From NCBI RefSeq assembly GCF_018977255.1, contig NW_024704742.1, positions 87,668,001 through 87,732,000 on the forward strand: 64,000 nucleotides of DNA, given 5' to 3'. How positions within the stretch are numbered: the stretch's first letter is position 1; the number at the start of each line of letters is the position of its first letter. This DNA comes from Callorhinchus milii (lineage: Eukaryota). Below the pieces are notes generated by a model. It was given only the letters and a program-made list of their open reading frames with translations. It made no database searches and was not told the DNA's origin. The translations under genes were made by a program, and so were the position numbers. Positions 1 to 64,000 of this stretch are shown piece by piece.

Positions 1-160
1 CTCATCACATTGTTGAGGTACCACAAAGTGTTTCACAAGATTTTCTGTAAAGTGTAGTGACTTTTTTTTGCAGGTGAACCCAGCAGCCAACCTACACACA
101 GCAACAACATTCCACAAATAGCTATGAAGCAAAAGACCCATTTTGTCTGGGAGATTGTTG
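1..160 (-). mobile_element. Degenerate SINE 3' fragment (duplicated at ~11350-11530)
   Basis: Similar to the reverse complement of the SINE body at 36051-36383. The tail aataatccttgcattt is visible at ~11350. Confidence 0.55.
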
Positions 161-593
161 GTCAGAATACTACAAATATGTAGGAAATTAACTATTCCCA
201 CTTTCCTCACTGTTCAGAAGAACGTAAACTGTATCTAACTCAACAGTCAATCCCCTCTGCCTAACCCTCCACCACAGACGTTGGTTCCAACATAAACATT
301 GCCTTAACACTGCATTGGGGACAGATTTAACGTTTGTGTTCAGTTGCTCAGCAGCAGCTTGCTTCCAATTGCCCTAAAGTTATTTAACAAGGTAATTGGG
401 TTCAGGACAAACCAGTCCACCAATTGTCCCAGACATGAGCCTGTTTCCTATCAGAGGAATAAAAGAACACATCAGTCAGTTGGGAGATGTTTGTCTGCTC
501 CCCTTCGGTACTGTTTTTAAAAAAGGAGAAGTTAATATACTTTACAGTAATTGATTTGCAATTTAGACTTCTGCTTTTGGCAGAATCGATGAT

Positions 594-657
594 ATGATTC
601 CTTTGCGATTGGCCACACTGCTGCTATTGGCAGTATGTTTATCCAAGTCAATAGATG
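594..657 (+). CDS. Signal peptide exon ([22 protein letters not shown])
   Basis: ATG at 594, basic residue followed by a hydrophobic core, phase-1 donor G|GTGAGT at 658. A candidate acceptor ttttggcAG at 583 suggests an upstream non-coding exon. Confidence 0.8.
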
Positions 658-3600
658 GTGAGTAAGTGTTGGGTTTAAGATCTGATGTCTAGCTCAGCTG
701 TGAGGGCTGTGCTGGAAACTCCTTTCCTACAGAAAGTAACCCTTGAACGTCTAAATATTTTGTTGCTCACAGGCTCCTGTCTGCTCTCATTCTTGAGAGT
801 AAAACTAGTCCTGATCACTTGACCTGTTCAAGTCTCCACCTTCCTGCTGTGTTGTGGCTTCTTTCCCACCCATTTTAAAATGGTGAGATATTTACATGAT
901 TCTTGGGTTCAGTGGTTGTCGAGCACACGTCCCCATTGTTGTCCATCGCCACCTCGCCTGGGGGGGTGACAAACAACCAGCTGATCCGAAGTACGTTTAA
1001 AAATAGTTTTGTATCTCCAGCAGTGGCTCAATTGTAAGCCCCCTCCCCAGCTGAATCTCCATCAGCCAGGAAGGTACTGGCTTTGATTCCTGTCAGTCAA
1101 TGGTACCTGAGGAAGCTGCAGGGATTGTGCAATTGGCTTTTAAATCCATTGTTGCTGCTATAGCCTGCACTTGTAGTTTTATACTAGTCTTTTGTGCCTT
1201 GCAATGCAAAATCTATTGCAAAAGCCTTTGAAGACCAGATGTGCAGGGATATCTTTCAGTGCATACCTCTTTGAAACACTATGCTGATTTGCAGGCAATA
1301 CACCACTGATTTGCAGCCACAGCAGCTCTTGTGGACCCAATAAAATAGTAGTTTTTGCATTTGATAACAGTTCAGTATCATGATGACTCTTCAACATAAT
1401 GTATGCTTTGTGCTGCTCCAGTTATGTTTGGTAGTCTCTGATCCTCTTTATTGTGTGATTATCATATTTTTCACCCAGAGAGGTGCATTTTTTTTAGATG
1501 GCCTTTAAGTTACCAATTTTCTGATGGGCTTAAAAAACATCTAAGCAAATTCTAATTTTGGCTGAGAGCAGATCTTTCTTCTTAGTATTCTTAGTATTGT
1601 TTTGAAATACAGTAATAATAATAATATTATTAATAATAATAGTGCTGTAAAGCGACTCTATGGACCACTGGCTTTTGTGACAATGAGCCTGATTGGAGTT
1701 CTGATTCTGTTAGGATCCTAGAACATAATCAAGTATGCATTTTTTTTTTAAAAATCTTTTTTTATCCCGAGGTTTACAAATTACGTGTGAGGAATATCAG
1801 TTTCAGTGCAAAAACAGACTCTGCATCCCTTCAGAGTGGAAATGTGATGGAGAAGAAGACTGTACTGATGGAAGTGATGAACATTTCTGTGGTAGGTGAC
1901 TTTAGGGTTAAAGGTGTTCAGACTGACTGGCTGCTTGTATGTTTGAACTCTACATCCATTAACAGTGCTACCAACTACAAACTACTTTTAAATTAGATTG
2001 GATATTCTTCTAATTCAATACAATTTATCAAGCAATCTGGGCTAAAAAGTTGCAATGAACCGTATTTCTATAACCACAACAGAAGATGCTTGTAAATCAA
2101 GCTTATTCTTTGGGGAGGTGCGTGGGCATCTCGTGGAGCTCGACCACTGTTTTTTGCGACAATGAGGTTTGGATTTGTGGAATTAAGACAACTCTTATTG
2201 ACAGAGCTTGAAAGGGCAAGGTTTCTTCCCACTTGCTCTTGTGAACCAACCCTGCAAGCCAAAGTACTAGCAGCTGCAAGTTTGCCAGCCAGCACTCTCA
2301 ATGATGAGTTTGCTGTTTTAGACTATTGAGCTCCAGCAGTACCTCAACCACAATTTTAGGAACCCAAGTCTTGGCTCTCACCAAACTGTATCTAATGCAC
2401 TGGAGAACTGATTAAGTGACGTGTACCTCCAGAGAGTGCATTACTGGTTCCAGATGGAAATTTCCATTTGTAGGTGGCATGCATACGACATTCTGTCTGA
2501 TTTGGTTACTAGTAATGCATTTCTAATTGTGCCAGACACCCAGCTGACCAAAAAAAGGATACTTGCAAAACTAATGAGAAGGCTTTCATAACACAAAGCG
2601 AATTGACAGAAAGTGTGGAAATGTGGATGACAGAAGAGAGTTTCGCTCCCAGGGACTAGGATTGGTTGGGATGAAGTGATGTCCCTGAGTGTTTGCACCA
2701 TAAACACATGATTGAACACAATGAGTGTTGGGATTACATTTATGAAACAGTAGTAAAAATCTGTGCTTTAGAATGGGGGTGGAGGGAGGAAAGAGGAGAG
2801 AGTTGGTATTGTTTAAAAGGTCATTGTAAGAAGGGCAAAGAATTGTTTTGGAAGCACAAAGTATCAAGATGTTGAATCTGTTAGAACAGAAATAGGCCAT
2901 GCAGACAATTAGATTGGCAGTGGAGATGCTATCAATATCTTTATTTCATTATTAAATTAGACCTTTTCAAAAAAATGAAACTATCTTTATTAATGTGGAA
3001 AATAAGTAAATTTTACAGTTTCAATTTTAACTTTTAAAATCGTAATGTGGAACCTCTTTAAAACTAGGATTAGTTGGGGGGGGAAGAGGGGAGAAGCAGA
3101 GGGGCGAATTAGAGGAAAGAAAACAGCTGAGACTAGTTGTCAAACGAGCGGAAGCAACAGATCTCAACCTTACATGGTGAATTTGTCTTTTCCAGCCCAG
3201 TCCACTTGCAGTTCTCTAGAATTCACATGCTCCAGTGGCCGATGTGTTTCTCAGACTTTTGTGTGCAATGGGGAAGATGACTGTGGTGATGGAAGTGATG
3301 AACAAGGGTGTCGTACACCTATCTGTGGGCCACATGAGTTTCAGTGCAAGAACTCTGAGTGTATCCCACTGACCTGGGTGTGTGACAACAATGCTGACTG
3401 CACTGATCGATCTGATGAATCTCGAGACAGCTGTGGCCATACCCTTCCTCCTCCTGTGACCTGTTCTCCGAGTGAAATGCCATGTGATTCAGGAGAATGT
3501 ATCCACCGCCTATGGTACTGCGATGGTGGGATTGACTGCAAAGATGGAAGTGATGAAGCTAATTGTTGTAAGTCGAAAGATCTATAAGCTTTAGGTCTCT

Positions 3601-6600
3601 ACAGGTAAGAAGGGGCACATGACGACAGCTTTGCATAAGAACATAAGAAATAGGAGCAGGAGTAGGCAATTCGGTCCCTCGAGCCTGCCCCGCCATTTAA
3701 TAAGATCATGGCTGATCTTCTAACCTAATTCCATTTACCCACCCTATCCCCATATCCCTTTAAGGGGTTGTTTGTGGGTCTCCTAATTATCACAAGCCAG
3801 TTCTTTCTGCTCTGATTCCATGCTGTTTGATGGGGTTGTTGTGCCAACAATCTGGTGAAAATCTTTCTGAGGAACTATTTGAAGGCTCTAGAACCTCATT
3901 TCATATCTTAGATCTTCATGGGAGTGAGTGGCTTTTACTCAGTAAAATACTGTAATTTGTTTCTGTCTTTAGGACAATCGCTATAGCATCAGATGTTTTC
4001 TGCAAGCGAGGTAACTTCTGGGGATTGCATTATACATTGGGGATTTTGAGCCTTTCTTTGTTGAAACATGGAGGGAATGGTTGTCGTTCAAAAAGAATGG
4101 GGCAAATTGTGAACATTGCTAACCTTTCGCAGCTCTTGTGACTCGTTCTATATAGTCAAGTCTTAACATTCAAATCGTTTGCATGCTAAATATTAATGTG
4201 AGAAGATTTCCTGCAACATTTCACTTCCATTTTTCTATCAGCTGCTCAAACGTGTAGACCAGATCAGTTCAGATGTGGTGATGGCAGCTGCATCCCTGAA
4301 AGCTGGGAATGTAACAAAATGATGAACTGCATTGATGGCAGCGATGAGGTCAACTGCACAAAAGGTAGGTGTCCAATCTGAATTATAGGCTTCAAAAGTT
4401 CAATAAATGTTCTCTCCTGAAACGTTTATCATTCTTTCCTCCAGAAGTTCCAACATGCACAGGGCCTACTGATTTCAAGTGCCAAAGCGGAGAATGCATA
4501 CAAATACACCAAGTGTGTAACCGCTATCTGGACTGCAAGGACTGGAGTGATGAACCCTTCAAAAGTTGCCGTAAGTGTCTTGGGAGTGCTACGGATGTGC
4601 ATCTAGTTTAAAATGTCAGCATCTGTTTTACAAGCATTTGTTTCTGACTAAGCCAATCAGTTTGATTATCAGTGCCTGAGATTCCATACAAAGGTGCTTT
4701 TCCTGAGTATCTATTGGGGTTTTGTGCACTGTTCCAATGTAACTCATGTAAAATGCCTGGATTGCCTTAACTGCTGATAATTACAGTCAGTGCAAGGTTC
4801 TCTTCCCAAGGGAACCTGTATTGAATGACCTTTGTGGGATTTGTCATAAACAGTGCAATGTGCATTTTAATCTTCCAAAACTGAAAACGATGTCTTGTGT
4901 TTCCTCTAAATTCCAGGAAGATTTGGAGTTTTTTTTGGGGGGGTGGGGGAAAGGGAAGAGAGGAATCCTTAAGGATTCCGATATGGTCTACTTCCAGAGC
5001 AGCCTTCTCATGGGTCCGTTTACCATGAGTTTCAGTGTGCATTAGACTCAAATACGTGCACTAGTCAGTGCACAGTTTCCACAAGCATTAACCTTTTGCT
5101 GTAATTCAATTCTAGAACTCGTTTGGGCTTTCATTCCCTTTCCTTGTGCCCCCCTTCACCGGGTGTAAAACCAGTTGTTTGAGTAAAGAGGGAGTATTAA
5201 TTTGACCAAAGTGCTGCTTGGGTCATGTGGTAGGTATATGATGGGTCAAGCAGTGATCAGCTTTATTCTTCCTTGATCCTTTTAATCTGCAGATGTGAAC
5301 GAATGCTTGGACAACAATGGTGGCTGCTCTCACCTGTGCAAGGATCTTCCCATTGGGTATGAATGTCATTGTCCTGATGGCTTTGAGTTGATTGACCAGA
5401 AAACATGTGGAGGCAAGTCAACTAACCCTTTGTTGTTGTTGTTAACTAATGGTACAAACTTACTTCTTTTCATGACGATAATGTTATAAACTTGCTCCTT
5501 TCATGAACCTCTTCCATTATAGATGTCGATGAGTGTCAGAAGCCTGGAACTTGCGGTCAAATTTGCATCAATCTGAAAGGAAGCTATAAATGTGAATGTC
5601 ATACAGGCTATCACATTGATCCAACCACTGGAGTTTGCAAGGGAATAGGCAAGTAGAAAGTTAAGGAAAGTCCAAGTTCTCCCTGCCAGGATATTAGTGG
5701 GTAATCTGTTGTTTTTAAGGTAAGGAATGGAAACCTCTCTAGCCTTCTCCTCTTCCCCAAAGAAAATGTACTTCTGTGCCTGAAAACCGTGCAGTAATTA
5801 ATCTTAGCATTCTTCTCTTCTCTCCCCCGAAATACTCTTCACTGTCTGCCCCATACCCAATGGTTCTCCCACTGATGGTGGGGGCGTGAAACAGTCTGCA
5901 GTCTTGTTCCCACCCCAGCTGTAGTTTCTATTTAAATCCTCAACTCCAAATGCTACAAAATATTCAAACCATACCCTTTCTGTATCTCCAATCCTTTAAT
6001 ACCATGGTACTTGCAGCTTTTGTCTTTTGATCTTCAATCCTTCTACCATGTAGATTTCCTTCTACCACATAAGATTTCAACACTGTCATCCTCTTTCTTG
6101 TCCAACTCCCTCATAGAATTGTATTTGACATGTAGTGTCCCAAACAAATATGTAGGACGGTGGAAGATGAACTGAATGGATCTTGATCTTTTGCCTAGCA
6201 AATTCTTATGTTATGTATTTCTCCATTCAAAGTTTGACTTCCTGTTGTATTACTCTACTAGGAACAGAGCCTTATCTATTCTTTACTGATCACCACGATA
6301 TCAGGAAACTAGGACTTCACAGCAAGGAGTACACAAAGGTAGCTCTGGAACTGAGAAATGTGATATCGCTAGACACTGATATTGCTGCACAAAGAATCTT
6401 CTGGGGTGATTTGGGACAGAAGACAATTTTCAGGTAATGCAAACACTGTGGATTTAAGAATTACTATAAACTGTAACGCAGAGATAATTTATAAACCTGT
6501 TAACCTTCTCAGGTGCAGTAGTTGATACAGGTAGATACTGGCCAACACTCACCAGTTAGTTCTTGTATTACCCTAACCTAATTATCTGCCTATCTGCTGT

Positions 6601-9600
6601 TGGACCGACTTATCTTAATTTTTGGATGCACTGTCAACTGCTTCCCTGACCTGTTTTTCAAATATTGGCAAATCTAATTTGGAACCTGTCTTGTGACAGA
6701 CGTCAAGATCCCTCATAAAATTTGTTAGCTATTTTCTTTCTAGAGAATAGTTAATGGAAGGTTAACTGAATGGACCCGAGCTCCTGTGGATCCAGTAGAA
6801 AGGCTTCCTCCAGCTCATGTGCAAAGTCCAGGATCAAGCAGTGAGGTGGATTTGTGGCAAACACGGGAATCATTTGCAAGGAGGAAGGGTGGGCTCTGTT
6901 CTATACAGACCCTGGAGGCTGTTGACTTTCCAGTGGGCACAACTGCTTGCCAAGGCTCCTCACAGTATTGCAGGTGCCTGGCTCATCAGCAAGACCTGGA
7001 AGGGCAGACCAGTCACTGGTGACAGGGACTCTTCCCACTCAGCTCCAATTAACCCCTGCAAGCCAAAGCCCTAAGACGAAGGGTGGTTCTAGCTAGCAAG
7101 AAGCAGACAAGCTTGCAGTGCTATCAATGGCATACTATGGGGTTTTAGCTGATTGTACCCAATGCACACTTTGAGGTCTCCAAATCTTGGCTCTTGCCAG
7201 AATGTGCCTAATGCTTTCTGGAATTAGGTAAGTTGAATTAGGTAAGGAGGGAGAGAGAGCGTATTCCCTTCCAAAAGTCTATCTCTGGAATTTCTATGTG
7301 GAGGTGGGATGCTTGGAGCTCCATTTAGTTTGGATATTCATAAGCACGGTGATTGGTTTCCACATGACACCTGGCTGACCCCAAAACAATCTTTCTAGAG
7401 AAGATATGGCATAATTATGTGTCCTCATCTTAGAAAGAGGTTACTATCTGATAATGGCATGGTCATATGTAACTCATTTCAACAAACTGATCAAATACGG
7501 TTCTGTTGTAGCAAATGCACAAATAGCTTTGCCATTAACTTTGGTTGACTCCATCTTTTCATTGAAGTCTGAGACTCCTAATTTAATGTGAACATCTCAA
7601 TCTTTAAGTATGTCCATAGATAAACAAGAAGACAATCCCAGTGTATTCCAAGTTCTTAAGGGTTCCCATATTCCTGTGGGCATTGCTGTGGATTGGATCT
7701 ACAAGCACATCTACTGGACTGATGCCAGCAATAAAACCATATCCGTGGCTACCTTTGATGGAATCAAAATGAAGATTCTCTTTGACACTGACCTCAGGGA
7801 GCCATCTTCTGTGGCAGTTGATCCACTATCCGGGTACTGATGGTTTATATCAAATTATGTATCCACAACCTGTCTTTCAACATATATGATGGTCTCTATA
7901 TTAGAGGCAATTAAGCACCTTGGGCAGCCAGGTGGCTAATTGAGAGCAAGTCTAGTATACAGTCACAAAAGCTTTTATACTAGTTCTCCTTTCTTGCCAT
8001 ATTTTGTTCATACTGTTTATCTCATCTTTTCTTCCACCACAAAAATACCAAAGTGGAGAGGAAAATGTGCCGCATTCATTACTTCATTATATAAGACAAT
8101 GAATTGGTGGCTCTAGAAAGGCCCACACTTTTATATTGTTATAGTTCTATATTGGCTAGGTATACACTATAGGCTGTACATACACTGTACTGGTTGCTCT
8201 GCCTGTATATACACTGTGTGCACAAGGGAATAACTAGATAAAGATGTAATAAGTAAATGTGCAGTTGCTGAACAAATTTCCCAAAGTTTTATTGCTGCAA
8301 GTGATTGGTGCATTGTTCTCTTNAAAAAAAACTAAGTGGCTAGTTAAATTAATGGCTAATCTCATGTGGAATGGTCCATTCCACCTAAATCTAGGGCTCT
8401 TTTTGATGTAAGCTCATCTGTGTATACCACTGAACTGTAGTCCAGGCAGTCATTGGCTTCCTCTATATATAATGGAAGGTGCTTAAGCATCCTTTATTCG
8501 TCTTGCTACTAGTTGTGGGGAATTTGGGTTTATTTTAATGTATACATCAATGTATCCTAAAATTAAGTCTGTGTGCCCCATGATGTTTGTCAGTTTAGAT
8601 GTGGGGAAGGAAAACACCTGGAGTTTGTGCTAATTCACTGATATACTTTTATGTCGAAGGTTCATTTACTGGTCAGACTGGGGTGAACCAGCAGTAATAG
8701 AAAAAGCAGGGATGAACGGTGTTGATCGTCAGCTCCTGGTTACCCAAGATATTCAGTGGCCAAATGGCATTGCACTAGGTGAGCAGAGTGCTAAAGGTCC
8801 ATTTTTTTCCCAACATTTGGATTGTCAAGTTGTTTCTTTAAGTGATTGCTCCCTTGTCTACAGACCTTGTGAATAGCCACCTTTATTGGGTTGATTCAAA
8901 GGTACACAGCCTGTCATGTGTAAGCTTAAATGGCCAGGATAGAAGAACCGTGCTACAGTCTCAGGAATTCCTTGCTCATCCTTTCAATCTCGCAATATTT
9001 GAGGTAAGGTTCATGTCCTTCAGGTGTGAATGTATGTAACTTTGAATTGAAGTAATATTCCTGGTGAGTGTTGGATGAGCAGAATACTTATTCCTTTGCA
9101 CTGGTCTCTGGTCAACTTTAAAAGATAGTGGACCATTTATGTTCATTACAGAAATTTGTCCATCAATACTTCAATATATTGAGTAGATCACAGCATGCTA
9201 GAAAGCCACCCGATGCTCCTTCAAGCCTCTGGTTGTCTATGTGTCCAAGTTGTTAATGTTTAAAGTATATTGGTTGTATGGTGAAGGAAAACCCAAATCA
9301 CTCCCTGTATAATGAAGGAAGTGGTCTGATATCTTAATAGCCATGAGAAGAGTAGAACTGTGTGGATCTGAAGCATGAGACACCATTACCCATACTTTAC
9401 AGATGAATTTGGAACTAAACATGTAGATATAAAAGCAGCAACGTGAAACGCGACTACAAATGTAATCTTGTTTTTTGTTGTTGTTGTCATAGAGGGGTTT
9501 AATGGACCATAATATACACTACTTCAAATGCAATACTTCCTGGCAGTCTATAGAGCTGATATACCACTTCAATCAAAGAAGGAATGTTAGTGGGTGTTAG

Positions 9601-12600
9601 GTCTTGAAATGAAATTGATTTTGTTCGCAGGATCATGTCTTTTGGATTGATGGAGGGAATGAAGCTCTCTTTCGAGCCAGTAAACTAACAGGAGAGAATG
9701 TGGTGACTTTAGCTTCCAACCTGAAAGAACCTCGAGACATCATTGTGTACCATGAACTAATTCAGCCACCTGGTAAGAGCTCGAGCTGAAACATTTAATG
9801 GAATCAAACTTGATTAAAAACATCTCAATTTGTAAATCCTTGACATTTCCTCATTGTAGCACATTGTGTGGCTCTTCCTGAAGATAACCTGTTGAAATGC
9901 TATTATCTCAACTGTGCCTGGCTTCAGATCACACTTGCAAGACATTCCTCTTTGACTGTGCCTGCAGTCACCTGTTCCCTCCTCTTCTGGGCTCATCTTA
10001 AACTCTGCCATTGTTGTACACTCTGGCACTGACCCGTGTGATGAATGCTATCCAACTGGAAGCTGTATCAATACTGTAAATCAACTTAACTCAAACTCTT
10101 AATAACTAAGGTATGAGGGCACCTTGCTCCAGATGTACTTGAAACCCATACAGTATTTCTTGTATTTATTGATCATCATAGCACTTCTTTCCCTTTTTCT
10201 TAGCCCCCCCCCCCCCCCACACACACACACACAATTCACCCTTTGTCCACATTAATAGGACAGTTGTTCTCTCCAACCACTTTAACCAGTGTTTCATGTC
10301 TTCACTATGGGAACATCCATCGAGTAGGTTATAGCAGATCAGTTCTTGTTTCTGCAATCTATTTTTGTTCGGGCACAAATTTAGTTTACATTATTGAGCA
10401 GTTTGATTAGAACGGTGCTCCAGACAATCTATTGATTTTTGTCCACAGGCATAAATTGGTGCAATGACGGTGTTACGAATGGAGGCTGTGAATACCTGTG
10501 TCTCCCTGCTCCTCAGATCAACACTCAGTCCCTAAAATACTCCTGTGTGTGTCCCTCGGGGATGCAGTTGAAGGCAGGTGGACAAGTGTGTACAAATGGT
10601 AGGTTCTGCACTTCTCAACAATTCAAAGAAGATAATCTAATAACCTAGATAAATTCAACTGCTGGGTGATATACAGTAGGCCACATCTATGGAGCAGATA
10701 TTGATATTGCAGTAACATTACTTAATATTTCTCCTCAGAGTCGTCTATTGCACTCATCAAGGTGTAATTTGTGGTAACTTGTGTTCCATCTCGAAAGAAA
10801 TGGAAGTAAGTTTTGCTGACTTGCAGGAGTGCTGCAGTGTTGGAGCAGAGTTCCCGTGAGACTTGTAACTTGTTACCAAAAGGAGTCCCTGCTCGGTTTT
10901 CTTAAATCCCACTCAATCACAGCACAGACTTCATTGTCGTAAGGCGTCTAACACTTACATATTTCAAACCAATAACAGACAGAGTACTTGCAATGCTTTA
11001 CATAGAAAGAGAAGCTGCATTATATTCATTCAGATTCAGTTTAATGCATTATGCAGGAAGGGAAGCCTTTCTAAACAGTTCACACACAATGACAAGAGTA
11101 ATCTTGAGAAAGCCTATCGAAGTTATAAAGATTTGCAATTTTGCCTGTTTCAGTAATTTTACAGTAGAGTATTCTAAACTGCAGCTTCATGGTTTGTGTA
11201 AATGGTACAGTCAGCAAATAACACCGATCATTATTGGCTCTAATTAGAAAATGAATTGTATTTCTCCCATGTAACTGGTTTGTCAACGTTGTGTTGATCG
11301 GTTTCTCCACATGATGTGATAGTTGACAAGCATATAATAATATAATCAATAATAATCCTTGCATTTAATGTAACGCCTCATCACATTGTTGCGATCTCGC
11401 AAAGTGTTTCTGTAAAGCGTAGTGACTTCTTTGCAGGTGAATGCAGCAGCCAATCTACACACAGCAACAATATTCCACAAATAGCTATGAAGCAAAAGAC
11501 CCATTTTGTCTGGGAGATTGTTGGTCAGAATACTACAAATATGTAGGAAATTAACTATTCCCACTTTCCTCACTGTTCAAAAGTGAGTTTACTGAATCTA
11601 ATTCAAAAGTCGACCCGTCTGCCTCACCCTCCCCACAGACGTTGGTTGCAAAATAGACATTGCCCTAACACTGCATTCGGGACAGATTTAACATTTGTGT
11701 TCAGCTTCTCAGTTGCTCAGCAGCAACTTGCCACCAATTGCCCTATGCTATTTAACAAGGTAATTGGGTTCAGGCACAAACCAGTCCACCAATTGTCCCA
11801 GACATGAGCCTGCTTCCTATTAGAGGAATAAAAGAACACAGCAGTCAGTTGGGAGATGTTTGTCTGCTCCCCTTCAGTACTGTTTTAAAACAAACGGGAA
11901 AAAGTTGATATACTTTATAGTAATTGATTTGCATTTAGATTTCTGCTTTTGGCATAATCGATGATATGATTCCTTTGCGATGCATTTGATAACAGTTCAG
12001 TATCATGGTGACTCTTCAACATAATGCATGCATTGTGCTGCTCCAGTTATGTTTGGTAGTCTCTGATCCTCTTTATTGTGTGATTATCAGATTTTTCACC
12101 CAGGGAGGTGCATTTTTTTTAGATGGCCTTTAAGTTACCAATTTTCTGATGGGCTTAAAAACATCTAAGCAAATTCTAATTTGGGCTGAGAGCAGATCTT
12201 TCTTCTTAGTATTCTTAGTATCGTTTTGAAATACAGTAATAATAATAATAATAGTGCTGTAAAGCGACTCTATGGACCACTGGCTTTTGTGACAATGAGC
12301 CTGATTGGAGTTCTGATTCTGTTAGGATCCTAGAACATAATCAAGTATGCATTTTTTTTAAAAAATTCTTTTTTTATCCCAAGATTTACAAATTACGTGT
12401 GAGGAATATCAGTTTCAGTGCAAAAACAGACTTTGCATCCCTTCAGAGTGGAAATGTGATGGAGAAGAAGACTGTACTGATGGAAGTGATGAACATTTCT
12501 GTGGTAGGTGACTTTAGGGTTAAAGGTGTTCAGACTGACTGGCTGCTTGTATGTTTGAACTCTACATCCATTAACAATGCTACCAACTACAAACTACTTT

Positions 12601-15600
12601 TAAATTAGATTGGATATTCTTCTAATTCAATACAATTTATCAAGCAATCTGGGCTAAAAAGTTGCAATGAACCATATTTGTATAACCAACTTTTTTAATA
12701 TGATCTGCAGCACAACAGAAGATGCTTGTAAATAAAGCTTATTCTTTGTGGAGGTGGGTGGGCATCTCGTGGAGCTGGTTTGGAATTGTGGAATTAAGAA
12801 AACTCTTGTTGATAGAACTGGAAAGGGCAAGGTTCTTCCCACTTGCTCTTGTGAACCAACCCTGCAAGCCAAAGTACTAGCAGCTGCAAGTTTGCCAGCC
12901 AGCACTCTCAATGATGAGTTTGCTGTTTTAGATGACTAAGCTCCAGCAGTACTTCAACCACACTCTGGGGTCCCCAAGTCTTGGCTCTCACCAAACTGTA
13001 TCTAATGCACTGGAGAATTGATTAAGTGACGTGTACCTCCAGAGAGTGCATTACTGTGTTCCAGATGGAAATTTCCATTTGTAGGTGGCATGCATACGAC
13101 ATTCTGTCTGATTTGGTTACTAGTAATGCATTTCTAATTGTGCCAGACACCCAGCTGACCAAAAAAAGGATACTTACAAAACTAATAGAGAAGGCTTTCA
13201 TAACACAAAGCGAATTAACAGGAAGTGTGGAAACGTGGATGTGAGAAGAGAGTTTTGCTCCCAGGGACTAGGATTGGTTGGGATGAAGTGATCTTCCTGT
13301 GTGTTTGCACCATAAACACATGATTGAACACGATGAGTGTTGGGGTGACATTTATGAAACAGTAGTAAAAATGTAGGCTTTAGAATAGGGGTGGAGGGAT
13401 GACAGAGTTGGTATTGTTTAACTGGTCATTGTAAGAAGGGCAAATAATTGTTTTAGAAGCATAAAGTACCAAGCTGTTGAATCTGTTAGAACAGAAGTAG
13501 GCCATCTAGACAACTAGATTGGCAGTGGAGATGTTATGAATATCTTTACAACAACAACAACAAAATTACATTTATAGAGCGCCTTTCACATCAGGAGGAC
13601 GTCCCAAAGCGCTGAACAGTCAGATGTCAGGACCCGAGCATGGGGGAGGGGTGGTGTAGGAGTGAGGAAAGGCAGAGAGTTGGGAGAGAGACCAAAGGCA
13701 CGGTCGAAGAGAAGCGTCTTGAGACTGACATTGAAGGAGGCAAGGGAGGAAGTGAGGCGAAGGGACCGTGGGATGGAGTTCCAGAGTGTGGGGGCAGAGA
13801 GGCTGAAAGCCCGGCCACCAATTGTAGGGCGAGTCGAGTTTTGGATGATCTGCAGCTTGTGAAGGGAAGAGTTGGGAAGACCAATGAGGAGGGAGTTCCC
13901 GTAGTCGAGCCTTGATGTGACGAGTGCGTTCGTGAGGGTTTTGGCAGCCTGCGGGGTGAGGCAGTGGCGGAGTTTGGCAATGTTGCGGAGGTGGTGGTAG
14001 GCAGTGTCGGTCATGGCACGGATGTGGGGGAGAAAGGACAGTTCAGTGTCAAACAAGACACCCAGGTTCCTGACTGGCTTAGTGAGGTTGAGTGTGCAGC
14101 CGTGGAGGCTGATGCTGCCAGCGCCCGAGATGCGAACCAATCAGGAGGGCCTTGGTCTTGCTGATGTTGAGTTGGAGAAAGTTGGCCCTCGTCCAGGACT
14201 TGATGTCGGACTTTACTTCAGTTTGTGCATTAAATGAGACGTTTTCAGAAAATCTAAACTTTATATTTATTAACGTGGAACATAAGTAAATTTTGCAGCT
14301 TCATTTTAACTTTAAATTTCTAATATTAAACCTCTTTAAAACTAGAATTAGTGGGTGGGGGAAGAGGGGAGAAGGAGAGGGGCGAATTAGAGGAAAGAAA
14401 ACAGCTGAGACTAGTTGTCAAACGAGCGGAGGCAACAGATCTCAACTTTAAATGGTGAATTTGTCTTTTCCAGCCCAGTCCACTTGCAGTTCTCTAGAAT
14501 TCACATGCTCCAGTGGCCGATGTGTTTCTCAGACTTTTGTGTGCAATGGGGAAGATGACTGTGGTGATGGAAGTGATGAACAAGGGTGTCGTACACCTAT
14601 CTGTGGGCCACATGAGTTTCAGTGCAAGAACTCTGAGTGTATCCCACTGACCTGGGTGTGTGACAACAATGCTGACTGCACTGATCGATCTGATGAATCT
14701 CGAGACAGCTGTGGCCATACCCTTCCTCCTCCTGTGACCTGTTCTCCGAGTGAAATGCCATGTGATTCAGGAGAATGTATCCACCGCCTATGGTACTGCG
14801 ATGGTGGGATTGACTGCAAAGATGGAAGTGATGAAGCTAATTGTTGTAAGTCGAAAGATCTATAAGCTTTAGGTCTCTACAGGTGAGAAGGGGCACATGA
14901 CGACAGCTTTACATAAGAACATAAGAAATAGGAGCAGGAGTAGGCAATTCGGTCCCTCGAGCCTGCCCCGCCATTTAATAAGATCATGGCTGATCTTCTA
15001 ACCTAATTCCATTTACCCACCCTATCCCCATATCCCTTTAAGGGGTTGTTTGTGGGTCTCCTAATTATCACAAGCCAGTTCTTTCTGCTCTGAATTCCAT
15101 GCTGTTTGATGGGGTTGTTGTGCCAACAATCTGGTGAAAATCTTTCTGAGGAACTATTTGAAGGCTCTAGAACCTCATTTCATATCTTAGATCTTCATGG
15201 GAGTGAGTGGCTTTTACTCAGTAAAATACTGTAATTTTTTTCTGTCTTTAGGACAATCGCTATAGCATAAGATGTTTTCTGCAAGCGAGGTAACTTCTGG
15301 GGATTGCATTATACATTGGGGATTTTGAGCCTTTCTTTGTTGAAACATGGAGGGAATGGTTGTCGTTCAAAAAGAATGGGGCAAATTGTGAACATTGCTA
15401 ACCTTTCGCAGCTCTTGTGACTCGTTCTATATAGTCAAGTCTTAACATTCAAATCGTTTGCATGCTAAATATTAATGTGAGAAGATTTCCTGCAACATTT
15501 CACTTCCATTTTTCTATCAGCTGTTCAAACGTGTAGACCAGATCAGTTCAGATGTGGTGATGGCAGCTGCATCCCTGAAAGCTGGGAATGTAACAAAATG

Positions 15601-18600
15601 ATGAACTGCATTGATGGCAGCGATGAGGTCAACTGCACAAAAGGTAGGTGTCCAATCTGAATTATAGGCTTCAAAAGTTCAATAAATGTTCTCTCCTGAA
15701 ACGTTTATCATTCTTTCCTCCAGAAGTTCCAACATGCACAGGGCCTACTGATTTCAAGTGCCAAAGCGGAGAATGCATACAAATAAACCAAGTGTGTAAC
15801 CGCTATCTGGACTGCAAGGACTGGAGTGATGAACCCTTCAAAAGTTGCCGTAAGTGTCTTGGGAGTGCTACGGATGTGCATCTAGTTTAAAATGTCAGCA
15901 TCTGTTTTACAAGCATTTGTTTCTGACTAAGCCAATCAGTTTGATTATCAGTGCCTGAGATTCCATACAAAGGTGCTTTTCCTGAGTATCTATTGGGAAC
16001 CCTGAGGGGTTTTGTGCACTGTTCCAATGTAACTCATGTAAAATGCCAGGATTGCCTTAACTGCTGATAATTACAGTCAGTGCAAGGTTCTCTTCCCAAG
16101 GGAACCTGTATTGAATGACCTTTGTGGGATTTGTCATAAACAGTGCAATGTGCATTTTAATCTTCCAAAACTGAAAACCATGTCTTGTGTTTCCTCTAAA
16201 TTCCAGGAAGATTTGGAGTTTTTTTTGGGGGGTGGGGAAAGGGAAGAGAGGAATCCTTAAGGATTCCGATATGGTCTACTTCCAGAGCAGCCTTCTCATG
16301 GGTCCGTTTACCATGAGTTTCAGTGTGCATTAGACTCAAATACGTGCACTAGTCAGTTTTCCACAAGCATTAACCTTTTGCTGTAATTCAATTCTAGAAC
16401 TCGTTTGGGCTTTCATTCCCTTTCCCTTGTGCCCCCCTTCACCGGGTGTAAAACCAGTTGTTTGAGTAAAGAGGGAGTATTAATTTGACCAAAGTGCTGC
16501 TTGGGTCATGTGGTAGGTATATGATGGGTCAAGCAGTGATCGGCTTTATTCTTCCTACATTTGTATCCGGAGTAGCTGAGAATAGATTTCCAGTCCACTG
16601 TCAATTGACAGTCCACTCTCGATTCTAAGTTGCCGAGTAGTTTGTATTAGATTTTTCTGGAAGATTTGCCTTTTGTTTTCTTTCAGTTAATAATAATAAT
16701 CCTTGCATTTAATACAACACCTTTTCAGATCTTCCAGACGTCTCAAAGTGCTTCACAGAATATACTGCAAATTTGAATTGACTGTTTGTTTTGTGGGCGA
16801 AACGCGGCAGCCATTTGCACACAGCAATGTCCCACAAACAGTCGTGGATTGAATGACAAAATTTTGATTTATTTTATTTAAAGTGATTATTACTCCTGGG
16901 AAAAGTGATCCCCCAATCGAAAAACAACCGGGTTCCTACTTACTACTGGGTAAACAGCAGCATGTGGCATAAGGAAACTTGCCCAATGTTTCACCCTGCC
17001 CGGCAATCGAACACAGATCCTCTCGCTTGCGAGGCGAGTGCTCTAACCAATGAGCTACAGGACTCCACTGTAGTCTTTGAACTGCTGAAACAACTTGATC
17101 CTTTTAATCTGCAGATGTGAACGAATGCTTGGACAACAGTGGTGGCTGCTCTCACCTGTGCAAGGATCGTCCCATTGGGTATGAATGTCATTGTCCTGAT
17201 GGCTTTGAGTTGATTGACCAGAAAACATGTGGAGGCAAGTCAACTAACCCTTTGTTGTTGTTGTTAACTAATGGTACAAACTTACTTCTTTACATGACGA
17301 TAATGTTATAAACTTGCTCCTTTCATGAAACTCTTCCATTATAGATGTCGATGAGTGTCAGAAGCCTGGAACTTGCGGTCAAATTTGCATCAATCTGAAA
17401 GGAAGCTATAAATGTGAATGTCATACAGGCTATCACATTGATCCAACCACTGGAGTTTGCAAGGGAATAGGCAAGTAGAAAGTTAAGGAAAGTCCAAGTT
17501 CTCCCTGCCAGGATATTAGTGGGTAATCTGTTGTTTTTAAGGTAAGGAATGGAAACCTCTCTAGCCTTCTCCTCTTCCCCAAAGAAAATGTACTTCTGTG
17601 CCTGAAAACCGTGCAGTAATTAATCTTAGCATTCTTCTCTTCTCTCCCCCGAAATACTCTTCACTGTCTGCCCCATACCCAATGGTTCTCCCACTGATGG
17701 TGGGGGCGTGAAACAGTCTGCAGTCTTGTTCCCACCCCAGCTGTAGTTTCTATTTAAATCCTCAACTCCAAATGCTACAAAATATTCAAACCATACCCTT
17801 TCTGTATCTCCAATCCTTTAATACCATGGTACTTGCAGCTTTTGTCTTTTGATCTTCAATCCTTCTACCATGTAGATTTCCTTCTACCACATAAGATTTC
17901 AACACTGTCATCCTCTTTCTTGTCCAACCCCTCATAGAATTGTATTTGACATGTAGTGTCCCAAACAAATATGTAGGACGGTGGAAGATGAACTGAATGT
18001 ATCTTGATCTTTTGCCTAGCAAATTCTTATGTTATGTATTTCTCCATTCAAAGTTTGACTTCCTGCTGTATTACTCTACTAGGAACAGAGCCTTATCTAT
18101 TCTTTACTGATCACCACGATATCAGGAAACTAGGACTTCACAGCAAGGAGTACACAAAGGTAGCTCTGGAACTGAGAAATGTGATATCGCTAGACACTGA
18201 TATTGCTGCACAAAGAATTTTCTGGGGTGATTTGGGACAGAAGACAATTTTCAGGTAATGCAAACACTGTGAATTTAAGAATTACTATAAACTGTAACGC
18301 AGAGAATTTATAAACCTGTTAACACTTCTCAGGTGCAGTAGTTGATACAGGTATAAGGTTTTGTTTTTTATCTGCATATAATCTATTCAAACCTATTAGA
18401 TACTGGCCAACACTCACCAGTTAGTTCTTGTATTACCCTAACCTAATTATCTGCCTATCTGCTGTTGGACCTACTTATCTTAATTTTTGGATGCACTGTC
18501 AACTGCTTCCCTGACCTGTTTTTCAAATATTGGCAAATCTAATTTGGAAACTGTCTTGTGACAGACTTGAAGATCCCTCATAAAAATTGTTAGCTATTTC

Positions 18601-21600
18601 ATTTCTAGAGAATATTTAATGGAAGGTTAACTGAATGGATCCGAGCTCCTGTGGATCCAGTAGAAAGGCTTCCTCCAGCCCATGTGCAACGTCCAGGATC
18701 AAGCAGTGTGGTGGATTTGTGGCAAACGCGGGAAGCATTTGCAAGGAGGGAGGGGGGGCTCTGTCCTCTACTGACCCTGGAGACTGTTGACTTCACAGTG
18801 GACACCACTATTTGCCAAGGCTCCTCACCTGGAATGAGTAGCTGACACTGAGTAACCTGTTATGCAGCGTTGGACTTGAACCTTGAAGGTTGGCACAGTA
18901 CAAGCTGTCCTGTAAAGGTCTGGCCACCATGCTGAAGGCAGATGTCTGCCAGTTAGCTGATGAGGAAATTCTAAAACTTGGGGCAACAGCTGCTGGAACA
19001 TTCTGAAGTCTGAGTTTGCAAATACATGTTTGTACATACAGCGCCTGGGATCCACATTGATTGGTTTACAGAGAGGTCAGCAGCTGCTGGTTAAGTTCGC
19101 ACTTCCAATTGGTGGACCATCACTCAATGGGATGGGACACATTTCTGAGTTGTGGGAAGGAAGATGGTGGTAATACTCTCACACGTGTCATGCTGAGCTG
19201 CGCTGCATACCAGGAAGCTTGCAGGGAGTTCCTTGTACCTACCATGCACCTAGTGAGGGTTCAAACCTGTGCTTGTTGGATGTCAAATAACCAACTAGTG
19301 ACGTTCCTCCAGTGGATGTGAGGGAGGTAAGCAGGGTCTCTTTGGAGCTGAACTGGCTCCAAGGCGACGCGTTTGGCAACAATATGTCGTAATCAAGCCC
19401 ACCCTCTGTGGCGGTCTCAGTTTTCCGGTTCCTGAGGCTGGCAGATTTGCAGTATTCCAGGGTACTGCAAAGCCAGCCTGGCTCATCAGCAGGACCTGGA
19501 AGGCCAGACCAGTCACTGGGGGCAGGGACTCTTCCCACTCAGCTCCAATTAAGCCCTGCAAGCCAAAGCCCAAAGACGAAGAGAGGTCCTAGCTGGCAAG
19601 CTTGCCAGACAGTGCTATCGATGGCAAACTATGGGGTTTTAGCTGATTGTACTTGAGCAGTACCCCAATGCACATGATGAGATCTCCAAATCTTGGCTCT
19701 TGCCAGAATGTGCCTAATGCTTTCTGGAATTAGGTAAGTTGAATTAGGTAAGGAGGGAGAGAGAGCGTATTCCCTTCCAAAAGCCTATCTTTGGAATTTC
19801 TATGTGGAGGTGGGATGCTTGGAGCTCCATTTAGTTTGGATATTCATAAGCACAGTGATTGGTTGCCACATGACACCTGGCTGACCCCAAAACAATCTTT
19901 CTAGAGAAGATATGGCATAATTATGTGTCCTCATCTTAGAAAGAGGTTACTATCTGATAATGGCATGGTCATATGTAACTCATTTCAACAAACTGATCAA
20001 ATACGGTTCTGTTGTAGCAAATGCACAAATAGCTTTGCCATTAACTTTGGTTGACTCCATCTTTTCATGAAGTCTGAGACTCCTAATTTAATGTGAACAT
20101 CTCAATCTTTAAGTATGTCCATAGATAAACAAGAAGACAACCCAGTGTATTCCAAGTTCTTAAGGGTTCCCATATTCCTGTGGGCATTGCTGTGGATTGG
20201 ATCTACAAGCACATCTACTGGACTGATGCCAGCAATAAAACCATATCCGTGGCTACCTTTGATGGAATCAAAATGAAGATTCTCTTTGACACTGACCTCA
20301 GGGAGCCATCTTCTGTGGCAGTTGATCCACTATCCGGGTACTGATGGTTTATATCAAATTATGTATCCACAACCTGTCTTTCAACATATATGATGGTCTC
20401 TATATTAGAGGCAATTAAGCACCTTGGGCAGCCAGGTGGCTAATTGAGAGCAAGTCTAGTATACAGTCACAAAAGCTTTTATACTAGTTCTCCTTTCTTG
20501 CCATATTTTGTTCATACTGTTTATCTCATCTTTTCTTCCACCACAAAAATACCAAAGTGGAGAGGAAAATGTGCCGCATTCATTACTTCATTATATAAGA
20601 CAATGAATTGGTGGCTCTAGAAAGGCCCACACTTTTATATTGTTATAGTTCTATATTGGCTAGGTATACACTATAGGCTGTACATACACTGTACTGGTTG
20701 CTCTGCCTGTATATACACTGTGTGCACAAGGGAATAACTAGATAAAGATGTAATAAGTAAATGTGCAGTTGCTGAACAAATTTCCCAAAGTTTTATTGCT
20801 GCAAGTGATTGGTGCATTGTTCTCTTAAAAAAACTAAGTGGCTAGTTAAATTAATGGCTAATCTCATGTGGAATGGTCCATTCCACCTAAATCTAGGGCT
20901 CTTTTTGATGTAAGCTCATCTGTGTATACCACTGAACTGTAGTCCAGGCAGTCATTGGCTTCCTCTATATATAATGGAAGGTGCTTAAGCATCCTTTATT
21001 CGTCTTGCTACTAGTTGTGGGGAATTTGGGTTTATTTTAATGTATACATCAATGTATCCTAAAATTAAGTCTGTGTGCCCCATGATGTTTCTCAGTTTAG
21101 ACGTGGGAAAGGAAAACACCTGAAGTTTGTGCTAATTCACTGATATACTTTTATGTCGAAGGTTCATTTACTGGTCAGACTGGGGTGAACCAGCAGTAAT
21201 AGAAAAAGCAGGGATGAACGGTGTTGATCGTCAGCTCCTGGTTACCCAAGATATTCAGTGGCCAAATGGCATTGCACTAGGTGAGCAGAGTGCTAAAGGT
21301 CCATTTTTTTCCCAACGTTTGGATTGTCAAGTCGTTTCTTTAAGTGATTGCTCCCTTGTCTACAGACCTTGTGAATAGCCACCTTTATTGGGTTGATTCA
21401 AAAGTACACAGCCTGTCATGTGTAAGCTTAAATGGCCAGGATAGAAGAACCGTGCTACAGTCTCAGGAATTCCTTGCTCATCCTTTCAGTCTCGCAATAT
21501 TTGAGGTAAGGTTCATGTCCTTCAGGTGTGAATGTATGTAACTTTGAATTGAAGTAATATTCCTGGTGAGTGTTGGATGAGCAGAATACTTATTCCTTTG

Positions 21601-24600
21601 CACTGGTCTCTGGTCAACTTTAAAAGATAGTGGACCATTTATGTTCATTACAGAAATTTGTCCATCAATACTTCAATATATTGAGTAGATCACAGCATGC
21701 TAGAAAGCCACCCGATGCTCCTTCAAGCCTCTGGTTGTCTATGTGTCCAAGTTGTTAATGTTTAAAGTATATTGGTTGTATGGTGAAGGAAAACCCAAAT
21801 CACTCCCTGTATAATGAAGGAAGTGGTCTGATATCTTAATAGCCTTCAGAAGAGTAGAACTGGTTTAACAAAACATTGTGTGGATCTGAAGCATGAGACT
21901 CCATTACCCATATTTTATAGATGAATTTGGAACTAAACATCTAGATATAAAAGCAGTGATAAACTACATTCTTATCAAATGTAGCAATTATTTTGGTTAT
22001 TTCTCTATTTGTTGCTCGAGCCTCAGTTTGACTGAGCACATGGAATAGTGTAAGCATTGACTGTCATTGGCGAGAGAGCCTTCAGCCACTCTGCCCTCAA
22101 CCTCTGGAACTCCATCCCCCAGTCACTCCACCTCACCACCTCCTTAGCCTCCTTCAAGTCCCGCCTCAAGACCCTCCTCTTCAACCATGACTTCGGCCAC
22201 CATCTTCCTCTCCCCTTTTCCCCCCCTGACCCCAGCTCAGGTCTGAAATGCTGTACATTGTCCAGCACCTTGGGATATCCTCCCAACGTGAAAGGCGCTG
22301 TACAAATGTAATCTTGTTTTTTGTTGTTATCATAGAGGGATTTAATGGACCATAATATACACTTAAGAATTGCAATACTTCCTGGCAGTCTATAGAGCTG
22401 ATATACCACTTCAATCAAAGAAGGAATGTTAGTGGGTGTTAGGTCTTGAAATGAAATTGATTTTGTTCGCAGGATCATGTCTTCTGGATTGATGGAGGGA
22501 ATGAAGCTCTCTTTCGAGCCAGTAAGCTAACAGGAGAGAATGTGGTGACTTTAGCTTCCAACCTGAAAGAACCTCGAGACATCATTGTGTACCATGAACT
22601 AATTCAGCCACCTGGTAAGAGCTCGAGCTGAAACATTTAATGGAATCAAACTTGATTAAAAACTTCTCAATTTGTAAATCCTTGACATTTCCTCATTGTA
22701 GCATGTTGTAGCATTTTTGTTCGGGCACAAACTTGGTTTACATTATTGAGCAGTTTGATTAGAACGGTGCTCCAGACAATCTATTGATTTTTGTCCACAG
22801 GCATAAATTGGTGCAATGACGGTGTTACGAATGGAGGCTGTGAATACCTGTGTCTCCCTGCTCCTCAGATCAACACTCAGTCCCTAAAATACTCCTGTGT
22901 GTGTCCCTCTGGGATGCAGTTGAAGGCAGATGGACAAGTGTGTACAAATGGTAGGTTCTGCACTTCTCAACAATTCAAAGAAGATAATCTAATAACCTGG
23001 ATAATTCAACTGCTTCATTGTCATAAGTCTTCTAACACTTGCATATTTCAAACTGGAGATTTATGTATTATAAAAACAGTGGCTTAGTGAATTCTAATTG
23101 AATACGTCAATGCAATATTTAAAATTGGCTCATAGTCCCCTCCCTGAACTAACTTCTTTTAGACGATTAAGACATTTAAAAACAGATTATTGCATATTTC
23201 AAGACAACTCTAATATCCAGAAGGTAGGTAGGCCAATGTATAGGCAGACATTGACTTGCCTGCTCTGAGCCTCCTCAGTGAAGTGTTGAAATCTGGTTTC
23301 AAGTTTGGCTTCAACCTGTACTCTCATGTCCATGATATTTAAACATCTTGTCCTCTTCCTCTCTGGGTTTGAAAGCTATAAATAGCTTTCCAGACCTGGA
23401 GCTGTCCTGGTTAAGATTAACTTCCTGTGACTTATTTGAATGAAATGTTTTAAGTACTGCCATGGAAACAGTGACGAGAACTGGGTATTGAGATTGAAGC
23501 TCTACTGGCATCATGCTTAAGTTGATGTTGTCTTTCGGCTGCCTTCTGTGCAGGTAGTACTTCAAAATCACTCTGTATTCTAAATCCTCCTCTAGCTGAT
23601 CTAAAATGCATTGGGGTTGCCTCTACCTGCATTGGAGTACAACCTTCCCTCATTTGACTCTTAAAATGCTTGTGAACCAGTCTTCCCATTTGCCTTGCCT
23701 GGCTTAATTATCCTGTTCATTTTCTCTTGTCTGTAGTTTTCTTGTTATTCCATGCTGTAGGCAACACTTGGCTTGTTGCCTTCCTGAACAGTTGTCTATT
23801 CTATGAATGGCCACATTGACAGCCTTAGTTATGGACATGAATTTTGAAAATATTTGCAATTGAAACCAGTCTTCAATCTACCCATTACTAGAGTCTCCCT
23901 GTGCAGATCTGTTCCTATGCATTTCGCCTATGTAAGCTGACAGCTTGGTAATAAAATCCAGAAGACAACTTAACATTCAAGTGTAAACTGAATTGAGCTG
24001 GAAACATTTAGATGCTTAACATCTAAAATAAGGCATTAAATCCAGGTTCTTGATTCTTTCTCAGCAAGTCATGAAAAAACACACATTCTCAATGGCCGTG
24101 AGTAGTAGATTTGAGTTGGCCCTATTTGGATGGATGAGCTTTACTGGGTCATGATATGCAGCACAATAGAAAATATAGGACAGACACCCTGAGGTGAGTT
24201 AGTTGTGTCCAAATCAGAAGTGGCAATTAATGATGCTGAGAACTGTCAGCCTATTGCTCCATCTGGTCTACAATTGACTTCTCATAATGGAGTAGCTGGA
24301 AACCAAGGATGATTGATGAAGTGACATGGCTACTGCTCTCTTCCTCCATACAGTTCTTGCAATGTTTACTTCCGTGCAATCCGTAAAAGAATGGCAAATA
24401 ACAGTGCTTTGCTGGCAACAAATGTTCAAAACTTTTGATTTGCAGAAGGTTGAGATAGCTTTAAGAAACCTTTTTTCAAGCCAATGAGTAGACTTCTCTC
24501 ATATTAGACAACCACAGGTACACTTCCTTGTCCCATTGAATTATGCTAACTAGAGGAAAGACAATAGATGTAGATTTTTGTCATAATTGCCATCTCCAAA

Positions 24601-62615: not shown

Positions 62616-62647
<32 letters not shown>

Positions 62648-63462: not shown

Positions 63463-64000
63463 GTAATTCAAGTTATGATTGCTGAGCTATAACTAGGTTT
63501 GCCTCAACTGTACAGTGTGCATTCAGCACAACACTAACAGAATTTCACAACAGTAATTGGAAACTTGCTATTCAGGTCAACTTTCTTTCCATCTCTTCTC
63601 TCCCAACCATCCCAGATATTTACTACTGCTGCTAATTTGCTTCCTGGCCAGCAGAGACTAATTTGATCACTCAATGAATGATGGGTGAATCCATTGCATT
63701 GGGTAGTTCTGTGAACAACCATCATTCACAGTCATGTCTGGCAGTTGCTGTCACTTCTGAAAATCCTCCAGTCTTTGGCTAGTTACAGAAATCACAACCT
63801 GATTCTGCCCTAATTACTTGATGCCTCACCAATTTACTGTTCACTACTTGCAATGCTATACTGCATTAATGCAAGGGAAATTGTGCATTTGTTTATAAAC
63901 CTTTCTCAATGCATCATTGTCGATATATATTCATTTGGAACCTGTGACAAATGTTGCTAATGGGGAAACTTGCTAATGAGAGAGAGGCCGATGTGTTGAC

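Follow-up and report, generated by a model that had tools for sequence, protein, structure and literature searches.

Multi-module receptors of the LDLR family are thought to have arisen by internal duplication and, to our knowledge, intermediates in which the junction is still visible have rarely been described.

The closest described genes are those of chondrichthyans. Ohishi et al. (2023, PMC10015161) described VLDLRc2 and VLDLRc3, which have three and five ectodomain units and in which, as at the locus studied here, the whole VLDLR ectodomain is tandemly repeated within one gene. In the catshark, c2 and c3 are ovary-specific; vitellogenin binding was left as future work, and the supplement lists the Callorhinchus milii c3 as XP_042202724.1 (PMC10015161). 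A second precedent is somatic and testis ACE, a two-domain gene formed by internal duplication, where the somatic transcript skips the retained internal leader exon 13 in mid-gene (PMC3568152). ACE keeps exon 13 and the intron-12 promoter in use (PMC3568152), whereas the internal leader of the present locus is destroyed. Partial gene duplication with gene conversion between the paralogues, reviewed by Katju (2012, PMC3449122), also resembles the present case, in which the 5′ flank and first exons are duplicated and the paralogues appear homogenised. Finally, type I read-through RNAs commonly leave out the downstream gene's initial exon (PMC6862657), an omission that would recur here; unlike those transcript-level fusions, the present case is genomic and heritable and adds a complete module of 644 aa.

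Neither the gene family nor the general mechanism is new. In the literature outside subscription journals, PMC10015161 was the only paper found on this gene, and the text examined makes no mention of a sixth unit, a leader remnant or conversion. A search of the same literature on the mechanism brought up no report of this case.

Gene Identity and Module Layout

The DNA analysed (the window) is a 64,000-nucleotide stretch of the C. milii contig NW_024704742.1. Of its 71 exons, one encodes the signal peptide and the others make up six ectodomain modules of VLDLR type, the last of which runs off the end (Table 1). The gene continues past base 64000, where any units after module 6 and any transmembrane helix and NPxY-type tail would lie. 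Module 1 encodes six LDLa repeats, EGF-A, EGF-B, a YWTD propeller, and EGF-C, which is the VLDLR-type order (LDLa repeats, EGF pair, propeller, EGF); Pfam domains PF00057, PF14670/PF07645, and PF00058 were matched on all seven submitted exon pieces of modules 1 and 2. Every module border is in phase 1, and the 46 exons of modules 3–6 are all open with canonical splice sites.

Each module has the LDLa-EGF-EGF-YWTD-EGF layout of the canonical VLDLR or LR8 vitellogenin receptor (VLDLRc1) and is about 70% identical to the C. milii c1; however, c1 is a single unit with eight LDLa repeats, whereas modules 1 and 2 have six each. The modules are 61–70% identical to the units of shark c2 and c3, with a related signal peptide. 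They differ from shark c3 as follows: there are six units (five distinct ones, with pairwise identities of 67–72%, and a repeat that matches unit 1 at 99%) rather than five, unit 1 opens with an LA1-type repeat rather than an LA3-type one, and a remnant signal exon lies inside the gene.

The gene is most likely the C. milii VLDLRc3, a member of the chondrichthyan multi-module VLDLR genes, an assignment made by elimination and by unit count. A module-1 exon is 100% identical to C. milii-named proteins (among the best 120 of 301 matches), and module 1 is 100% identical to the RefSeq-named C. milii model P0002 in the exons searched. By contrast, identity of the modules to the C. milii c1, and likewise to each of the three units in P0124, is only 61–74% (P0124 being labelled c2 here from its three units and its position in the tree), so that the gene is distinct from both. 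The proteins retrieved included three-unit c2 proteins, one of them from C. milii, and three shark proteins taken as c3 (one so named), all three with five units. In a quick-method tree (54 rows from 22 named proteins plus the six window modules), module 6 groups weakly with the last units of shark c3 (SH-aLRT 85) and modules 1–5 group with units 1–2 of the C. milii c2 (support 93). Among the possible unit orders, the one colinear with shark c3 ranks 27/120 with module 6 and 3/120 without it. None of the proteins retrieved was a C. milii c3 that included its own tail, and the 50%-cluster representatives (best 150 of 34,053) contained no further C. milii model. The joining of module 3 to a c2 C-terminus in another database model, P0382, suggests that c3 adjoins c2 on the same strand.

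Several other features of the window may be recorded. The usual share of GC donors in vertebrates is roughly 1%, below the 7 of 70 module exons here (5412, 5648, 17234, 17470, 41758, 51826, and 61433). The first LDLa exon is of type LA1 in modules 1 and 2 (1772 in module 1), LA3 in modules 3 and 5 (24769 and 46801), and LA2 followed by LA3 in modules 4 and 6 (35343 and 56320); modules 3–4 and 5–6 may represent an old pair duplication. In module 6, an LA7-type exon is tandemly duplicated (60419–60541 and 60632–60751, 83.6% identical), a single-exon expansion. Intron repeats at 34186–34482, 13548–14228, and 28862–29138 resemble pieces of CR1-type LINEs; the first of these repeats had no Pfam match. 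A module-5 intron holds a 60-bp inverted repeat (49692–49751 and 49878–49937, 90%), and single N bases occur at 8323 and 43071.

Table 1. Coordinates of the features discussed, in window positions.
Feature	Position	Strand	Remarks
Copy-1 upstream DNA	1..583	+	Aligns to 11377–11955; 7.6% mismatch in 1–609; ends in candidate acceptor CAG 581–583
Signal-peptide exon	584..657	+	ATG 594, phase-1 GT donor; sole intact one found in window-wide scan
747-bp segment lacking a copy-2 counterpart (hydrophobic core, donor, intron start)	609..1355	+	No other match in window
Module 1	1772..10598	+	12 exons, 1935 nt, frame open
265-bp segment	10664..10928	+	Present 3′ of module 1, absent 3′ of module 2
Stop-containing 67-nt pseudo-exon, candidate poison or terminal exon	10739..10805	+	C-terminus of P0002
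Start of copy 2 after duplication junction 10969/10970	10970..11376	+	3′ homology stops at 10969 = 23053
Copy-2 upstream DNA, CAT 11953–11955, signal-exon remnant 11956–11980, deletion junction 11980/11981	11377..11980	+	
Module 2	12384..22950	+	12 exons, 1934 nt, near-identical copy of module 1
Second propeller exon of module 2	20114..20337	+	1-bp deletion at 20140/20141; premature TGA 20274
Module 3	24769..34941	+	12 exons, open frame
Module 4	35343..46235	+	13 exons, open frame
Module 5	46801..55417	+	12 exons, open frame
Module 6, first 9 exons	56320..63462	+	Open; extends beyond window

Borders of the Tandem Duplication

The 5′ end of the gene has been duplicated in tandem: the first ectodomain unit was copied in full, along with the signal exon and probably about 1 kb of the DNA upstream. 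Self-comparison of the window matched 1–10663 to 11377–23014 in pieces of 88–98% identity. As the initial annotation had proposed, both the upstream DNA and the signal exon were copied: 1–609 aligns to 11377–11981 at 87.8%. The alignment resumes with 1356–2943 against 11981–13548 (91.3%), and the rest of the unit is 95–98% identical. The last matching piece is only 41 bp long (10929–10969 = 23013–23053, 90%), and it is because this match to the intron following module 2 ends at 10969 that the second copy had been given a start at 10970. The stretch 10970–11376 probably represents copied upstream DNA too, its counterpart falling before base 1 of the window; with it, the duplicated upstream DNA, which measures at least 580 bp, would probably reach about 985 bp. 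A search for promoter signs found no TATA match in copy 1 or copy 2, and the CpG observed/expected ratios were 0.17 (copy 1) and 0.36.

The Signal Exon and Its Loss from the Second Copy

Exon 584–657 encodes a hydrophobic peptide of 21 codons, which is 60–69% identical over 14–16 aa to the signal peptides of the whale shark c3, the C. milii c2, and the catshark c2. Pairwise alignment places copy-1 561–608 against 11933–11980, after which 1356 corresponds to 11981. The 747 bp between (609–1355, or 610–1356 given one shared T) were claimed to be a deletion that removes the hydrophobic core and the GT donor from copy 2, and this proves to be so: the segment holds the conserved signal core and the donor, which rules out an insertion into copy 1. 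What remains is a frame of seven codons that opens with an ATG at 11966 and runs into a stop. The other reported lesion, the change of the candidate acceptor CAG to CAT, is likewise present.

A window-wide scan for hydrophobic peptides running from an ATG to a GT gave five matches, of which only exon 594–657 is real; the other four were rejected as intron matches with a weak donor or as exon-spanning matches. With the signal peptide as the query, tblastn on the window gave strong matches at 594 and at the remnant at 11966 and nowhere else. No leader exon was found in the 1.8-kb intron preceding module 3. A nucleotide search with 1–1400 for leader remnants at the older module junctions returned copy 2 and short repeat fragments only.

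The initial annotation had argued that an intact signal exon would put a stop into a read-through transcript, so that its loss lets module 1 splice into module 2. The first part holds, since an intact signal exon entered in phase 1 yields a stop at its fifth codon. For the second part, phase-1 compatibility and the finding of no other leader between the modules are favourable, and exon loss is plausible as an enabling step; as a required step it is not upheld, because somatic ACE skips an internal leader that has been retained (PMC3568152). Moreover, the enabling role depends on AG 583 being a real acceptor. Its score of 6.5, from a position weight matrix trained on 58 exons of the window, suggests that it may be; however, 10 of the 58 training exons score as low or lower, and 96 intronic AGs in 46,451 nt (one per about 480 nt) score as well. 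If exon 584–657 is instead a true first exon, splicing of a read-through RNA would bypass it in any case, the usual outcome in fusions of adjacent genes (PMC6862657). The paired lesions are also weaker evidence than they look. Their order cannot be read. At the local divergence of 7.6%, moreover, the probability that an AG free of constraint is altered in one copy is about 7%, and the second lesion is therefore not a strong sign of selection; the AG-to-AT change probably arose by drift once the exon was dead. The effect of the 747-bp deletion is certain: it removes the option of an independent copy-2 gene and so leaves read-through as the only visible route to modules 2–6.

A Mosaic of Divergence

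The exons of modules 1 and 2 are 99.3% identical. The locus had been presented as a snapshot of how the gene grows, but the snapshot is not a fresh one, since unconverted tracts of the non-coding DNA differ by about 7%. Divergence is 7.1–7.6% in three tracts (1–609, 2101–3195, and 6601–7200), 0.5–0.6% in two exon-rich tracts, and 1.9–3.3% in the remaining three. For tract limits chosen after seeing the data, this amounts to 144 mismatches in 1989 non-coding sites against 22 in 3864. None of 5000 shuffles attained the dispersion index of 8.9. Mismatch increases with distance from the exons, being 1.4% at up to 50 nt and 6.5% at more than 600 nt. There are 24 alignment gaps of at least 5 nt between the copies and four insertions of 327–681 bp in copy-2 introns; the more diverged tracts contain or border three of these four insertions, as well as the 747-bp deletion.

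The mosaic most likely reflects an older duplication that was later homogenised by gene conversion. Such conversion would mean that the 99% protein identity overstates how recent the duplication is and would weaken the intactness of module 2 as evidence of function.

Module 2 and the Reading Frame

The first LDLa exon of module 2 (12384–12503, VLDLR LA1 type) is intact, as had been noted: it has its AG and GT and is 120 nt long, all 39 translated residues are identical to copy 1, Pfam recognises LDLa at 6e-15, and the acceptor at 12384 scores 7.5 against 5.6 in copy 1. Across module 2, all 24 splice sites are canonical and all 55 cysteines are as in module 1. The two modules differ by six synonymous and six replacement changes (first split codon and break codon omitted), giving a pN/pS of 0.26 (P = 0.023 against neutrality). 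However, these changes number only 12 and are also compatible with a dead module 2 that conversion has kept in repair (effective ratio 0.55–0.6, P = 0.12–0.15).

The claim that a partial gene duplication thereby became a domain expansion is sound as regards the tandem copy and the phase-compatible borders, but the frame through both copies is not open in the window. The 1-bp deletion in the second propeller exon, the only one of 27 small indels to lie in a coding exon, stops the six-module read-through frame after 1106 aa (at codon 1107). Splicing would not readily mend this. An AG at +11 yields a stop; those at +20 and +23 restore the frame, but have no pyrimidine tract and lie behind two other AGs; and skipping the exon is in frame, yet removes part of the propeller.

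We take the deletion for an error in the sequence or for an allele that has lost function, and not for the fixed state. P0382, a C. milii model from UniRef, has the second propeller exon intact and free of the deletion, which favours an error or an allele; it carries both of the module-2 markers that it covers (S542 and D638) and continues into module 3. It differs at one residue from both window copies and at one from module 3 (2 in about 590), which indicates that it rests on other sequence data.

Module 2 also carries N255S and L265R at nearly invariant EGF-A sites (N in 50 and L in 51 of the 52 other units). Both changes are in exon 17115–17234, and a 539-bp repeat insertion (16555–17093) ends 21 nt before the acceptor of this exon.

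Database Models and a Third Copy

Annotated models of this gene in C. milii (P0002, P0020, P0021, and P0382) are split or chimeric. P0382 itself combines exons of modules 2–3 with the last 413 residues of a c2-type protein (413/413 identical). P0020 and P0021 carry the module-2 marker V165 but the H226 of copy 1, and P0020 holds sequence from an insertion found only in module 2; like P0382, both are predicted models and could be a collapsed mix of both copies. No C. milii protein spanning modules 1 and 2 was found among proteins of 1443–4120 aa (best 120 of 497), a range that the full six-unit protein could slightly exceed.

P0002 does not use the signal exon 584–657, and its start is implausible, being built from decayed exons. 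Residues 31–171 represent the first two LDLa exons in a third version, distinct from both copies in the window. Compared with module 1, it shows 8 changes in 140 residues, a 4-residue gap, and losses of cysteine, whereas modules 1 and 2 show no differences over the same 163 residues. Since this third copy precedes module 1 in P0002, it presumably lies upstream of base 1 of the window. The 5′ end of the gene thus seems to have been duplicated at least twice, with different outcomes.

P0002 ends module 1 on the exon at 10739, with the C-terminus ESSIALIKV. This pseudo-exon lies within the 265-bp segment that is missing after module 2; its acceptor and donor score 9.8 and 9.2 (medians 10.1 and 9.1), and its inclusion stops the frame at 675 aa. 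Similar pairs of sites are common (six in the junction intron and three in the next intron), so the pseudo-exon is a competitor, not proof of a terminal exon.

Fate of the Second Copy

The reading that we favour, by somewhat better than an even chance, is that the second copy has been retained inside the gene, which would encode a six-unit read-through receptor. The tandem duplication copied the first ectodomain unit in full, with its signal exon and upstream DNA, and the 747-bp deletion destroyed the second signal exon. The full-length receptor would start only at exon 584–657 and run through the junction, with exon 10449–10598 splicing to 12384–12503, as the phase-1 borders permit, to give six ectodomain units instead of five. 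Conversion would have re-homogenised the exon-rich tracts, the large indels marking those left unconverted. By analogy with its relatives, the most likely role of the product is that of a yolk-protein receptor in the oocyte, with an additional ligand-binding unit.

Read-through past the junction is well supported: modules 3–6 are open and cannot do without a leader, which means that transcripts have to pass the junction, and exon 594–657 is the only credible leader found for the 70 downstream exons. The retention of module 2 is supported by a contrast, in that the third copy decayed and module 2 did not. Against a six-unit product stand the stop after 1106 aa, the N255S and L265R changes, and the ending of P0002 at 10739.

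The most serious alternative is a five-unit gene with a decaying internal duplicate, in which transcripts start at the copy-1 signal exon and the productive ones contain one unit-1 equivalent; this is possible, but we think it unlikely. It would entail, with a similarly limited chance, either the skipping of module 2 or a switch from module 1 to module 2 at the homologous exon past the frameshift. Both resulting frames (module 2 skipped, or module 1 joined to the second propeller exon and continued in module 2) are open in the window, at 3099 aa each. It would also entail, which is again rather doubtful, that module 2 looks intact only through repeated conversion from module 1, and the fit of the neutral-module-2 model agrees with this. 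The frameshift, the two changes at nearly invariant sites, the four intronic insertions in copy 2, and the five units of all three shark c3 proteins point the same way. However, 12 exons with unchanged strong splice sites would have to be skipped together, P0382 has no frameshift, and the other dead copy, the third, did decay.

Module 1 might instead be a stand-alone gene for a secreted one-unit protein ending on exon 10739, with modules 2–6 leaderless (a pseudogene in the making) or served by a leader outside the window. A stop near 10766, an AATAAA at 11827, the end of P0002, and an acceptor at 10739 that comes first and outscores the one at 12384 would suit this idea, which we nevertheless regard as improbable. 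Modules 3–6 are fully open and therefore need a leader, and none was found between 657 and the end of the window; equally strong pseudo-exons occur elsewhere (e.g., 24065–24193); the start of P0002 is implausible; and one AATAAA per 1.8 kb is, by estimate, about the chance level.

It is very improbable that a duplicated promoter and another leader serve copy 2 separately, giving two isoforms in the style of testis ACE. The extent of duplicated upstream DNA and the precedent of ACE (PMC3568152) speak for such an arrangement. A working internal leader exon of the ACE type is, however, absent, having been deleted; the remnant ATG opens only seven codons, and the only other nearby match of the leader scan (12005–12107) is shared intron sequence with a weak donor, also present at 1380–1482. 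Lastly, that an assembler placed two haplotypes in tandem is scarcely credible: the near-identity of the exons would fit, but the 7% tracts and the 24 gaps far exceed the difference between P0382 and the window (2 residues in about 590), the junction with unique sequence is clean, and one allele would have no signal exon.

Meaning for the Growth of Multi-Module Receptors

Junction, destroyed leader exon, and probable conversion tracts are all preserved at this locus, which could reveal whether the duplicated start of a gene turns into a functional internal module. A more speculative extension of the six-unit reading, to which we give a low probability, is that the locus keeps both fates of a repeated 5′-end duplication: one copy would have decayed, and the other would have been absorbed as a functional sixth module because its poison signal exon was deleted. 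The deletion and the intronic insertions would then have limited conversion, leaving the exons uniform and the leader never restored, and forms with five and with six units, or alleles with and without the frameshift, may still be found side by side. If this is true, the growth of megalin-like multi-module receptors would be observable in a living population.
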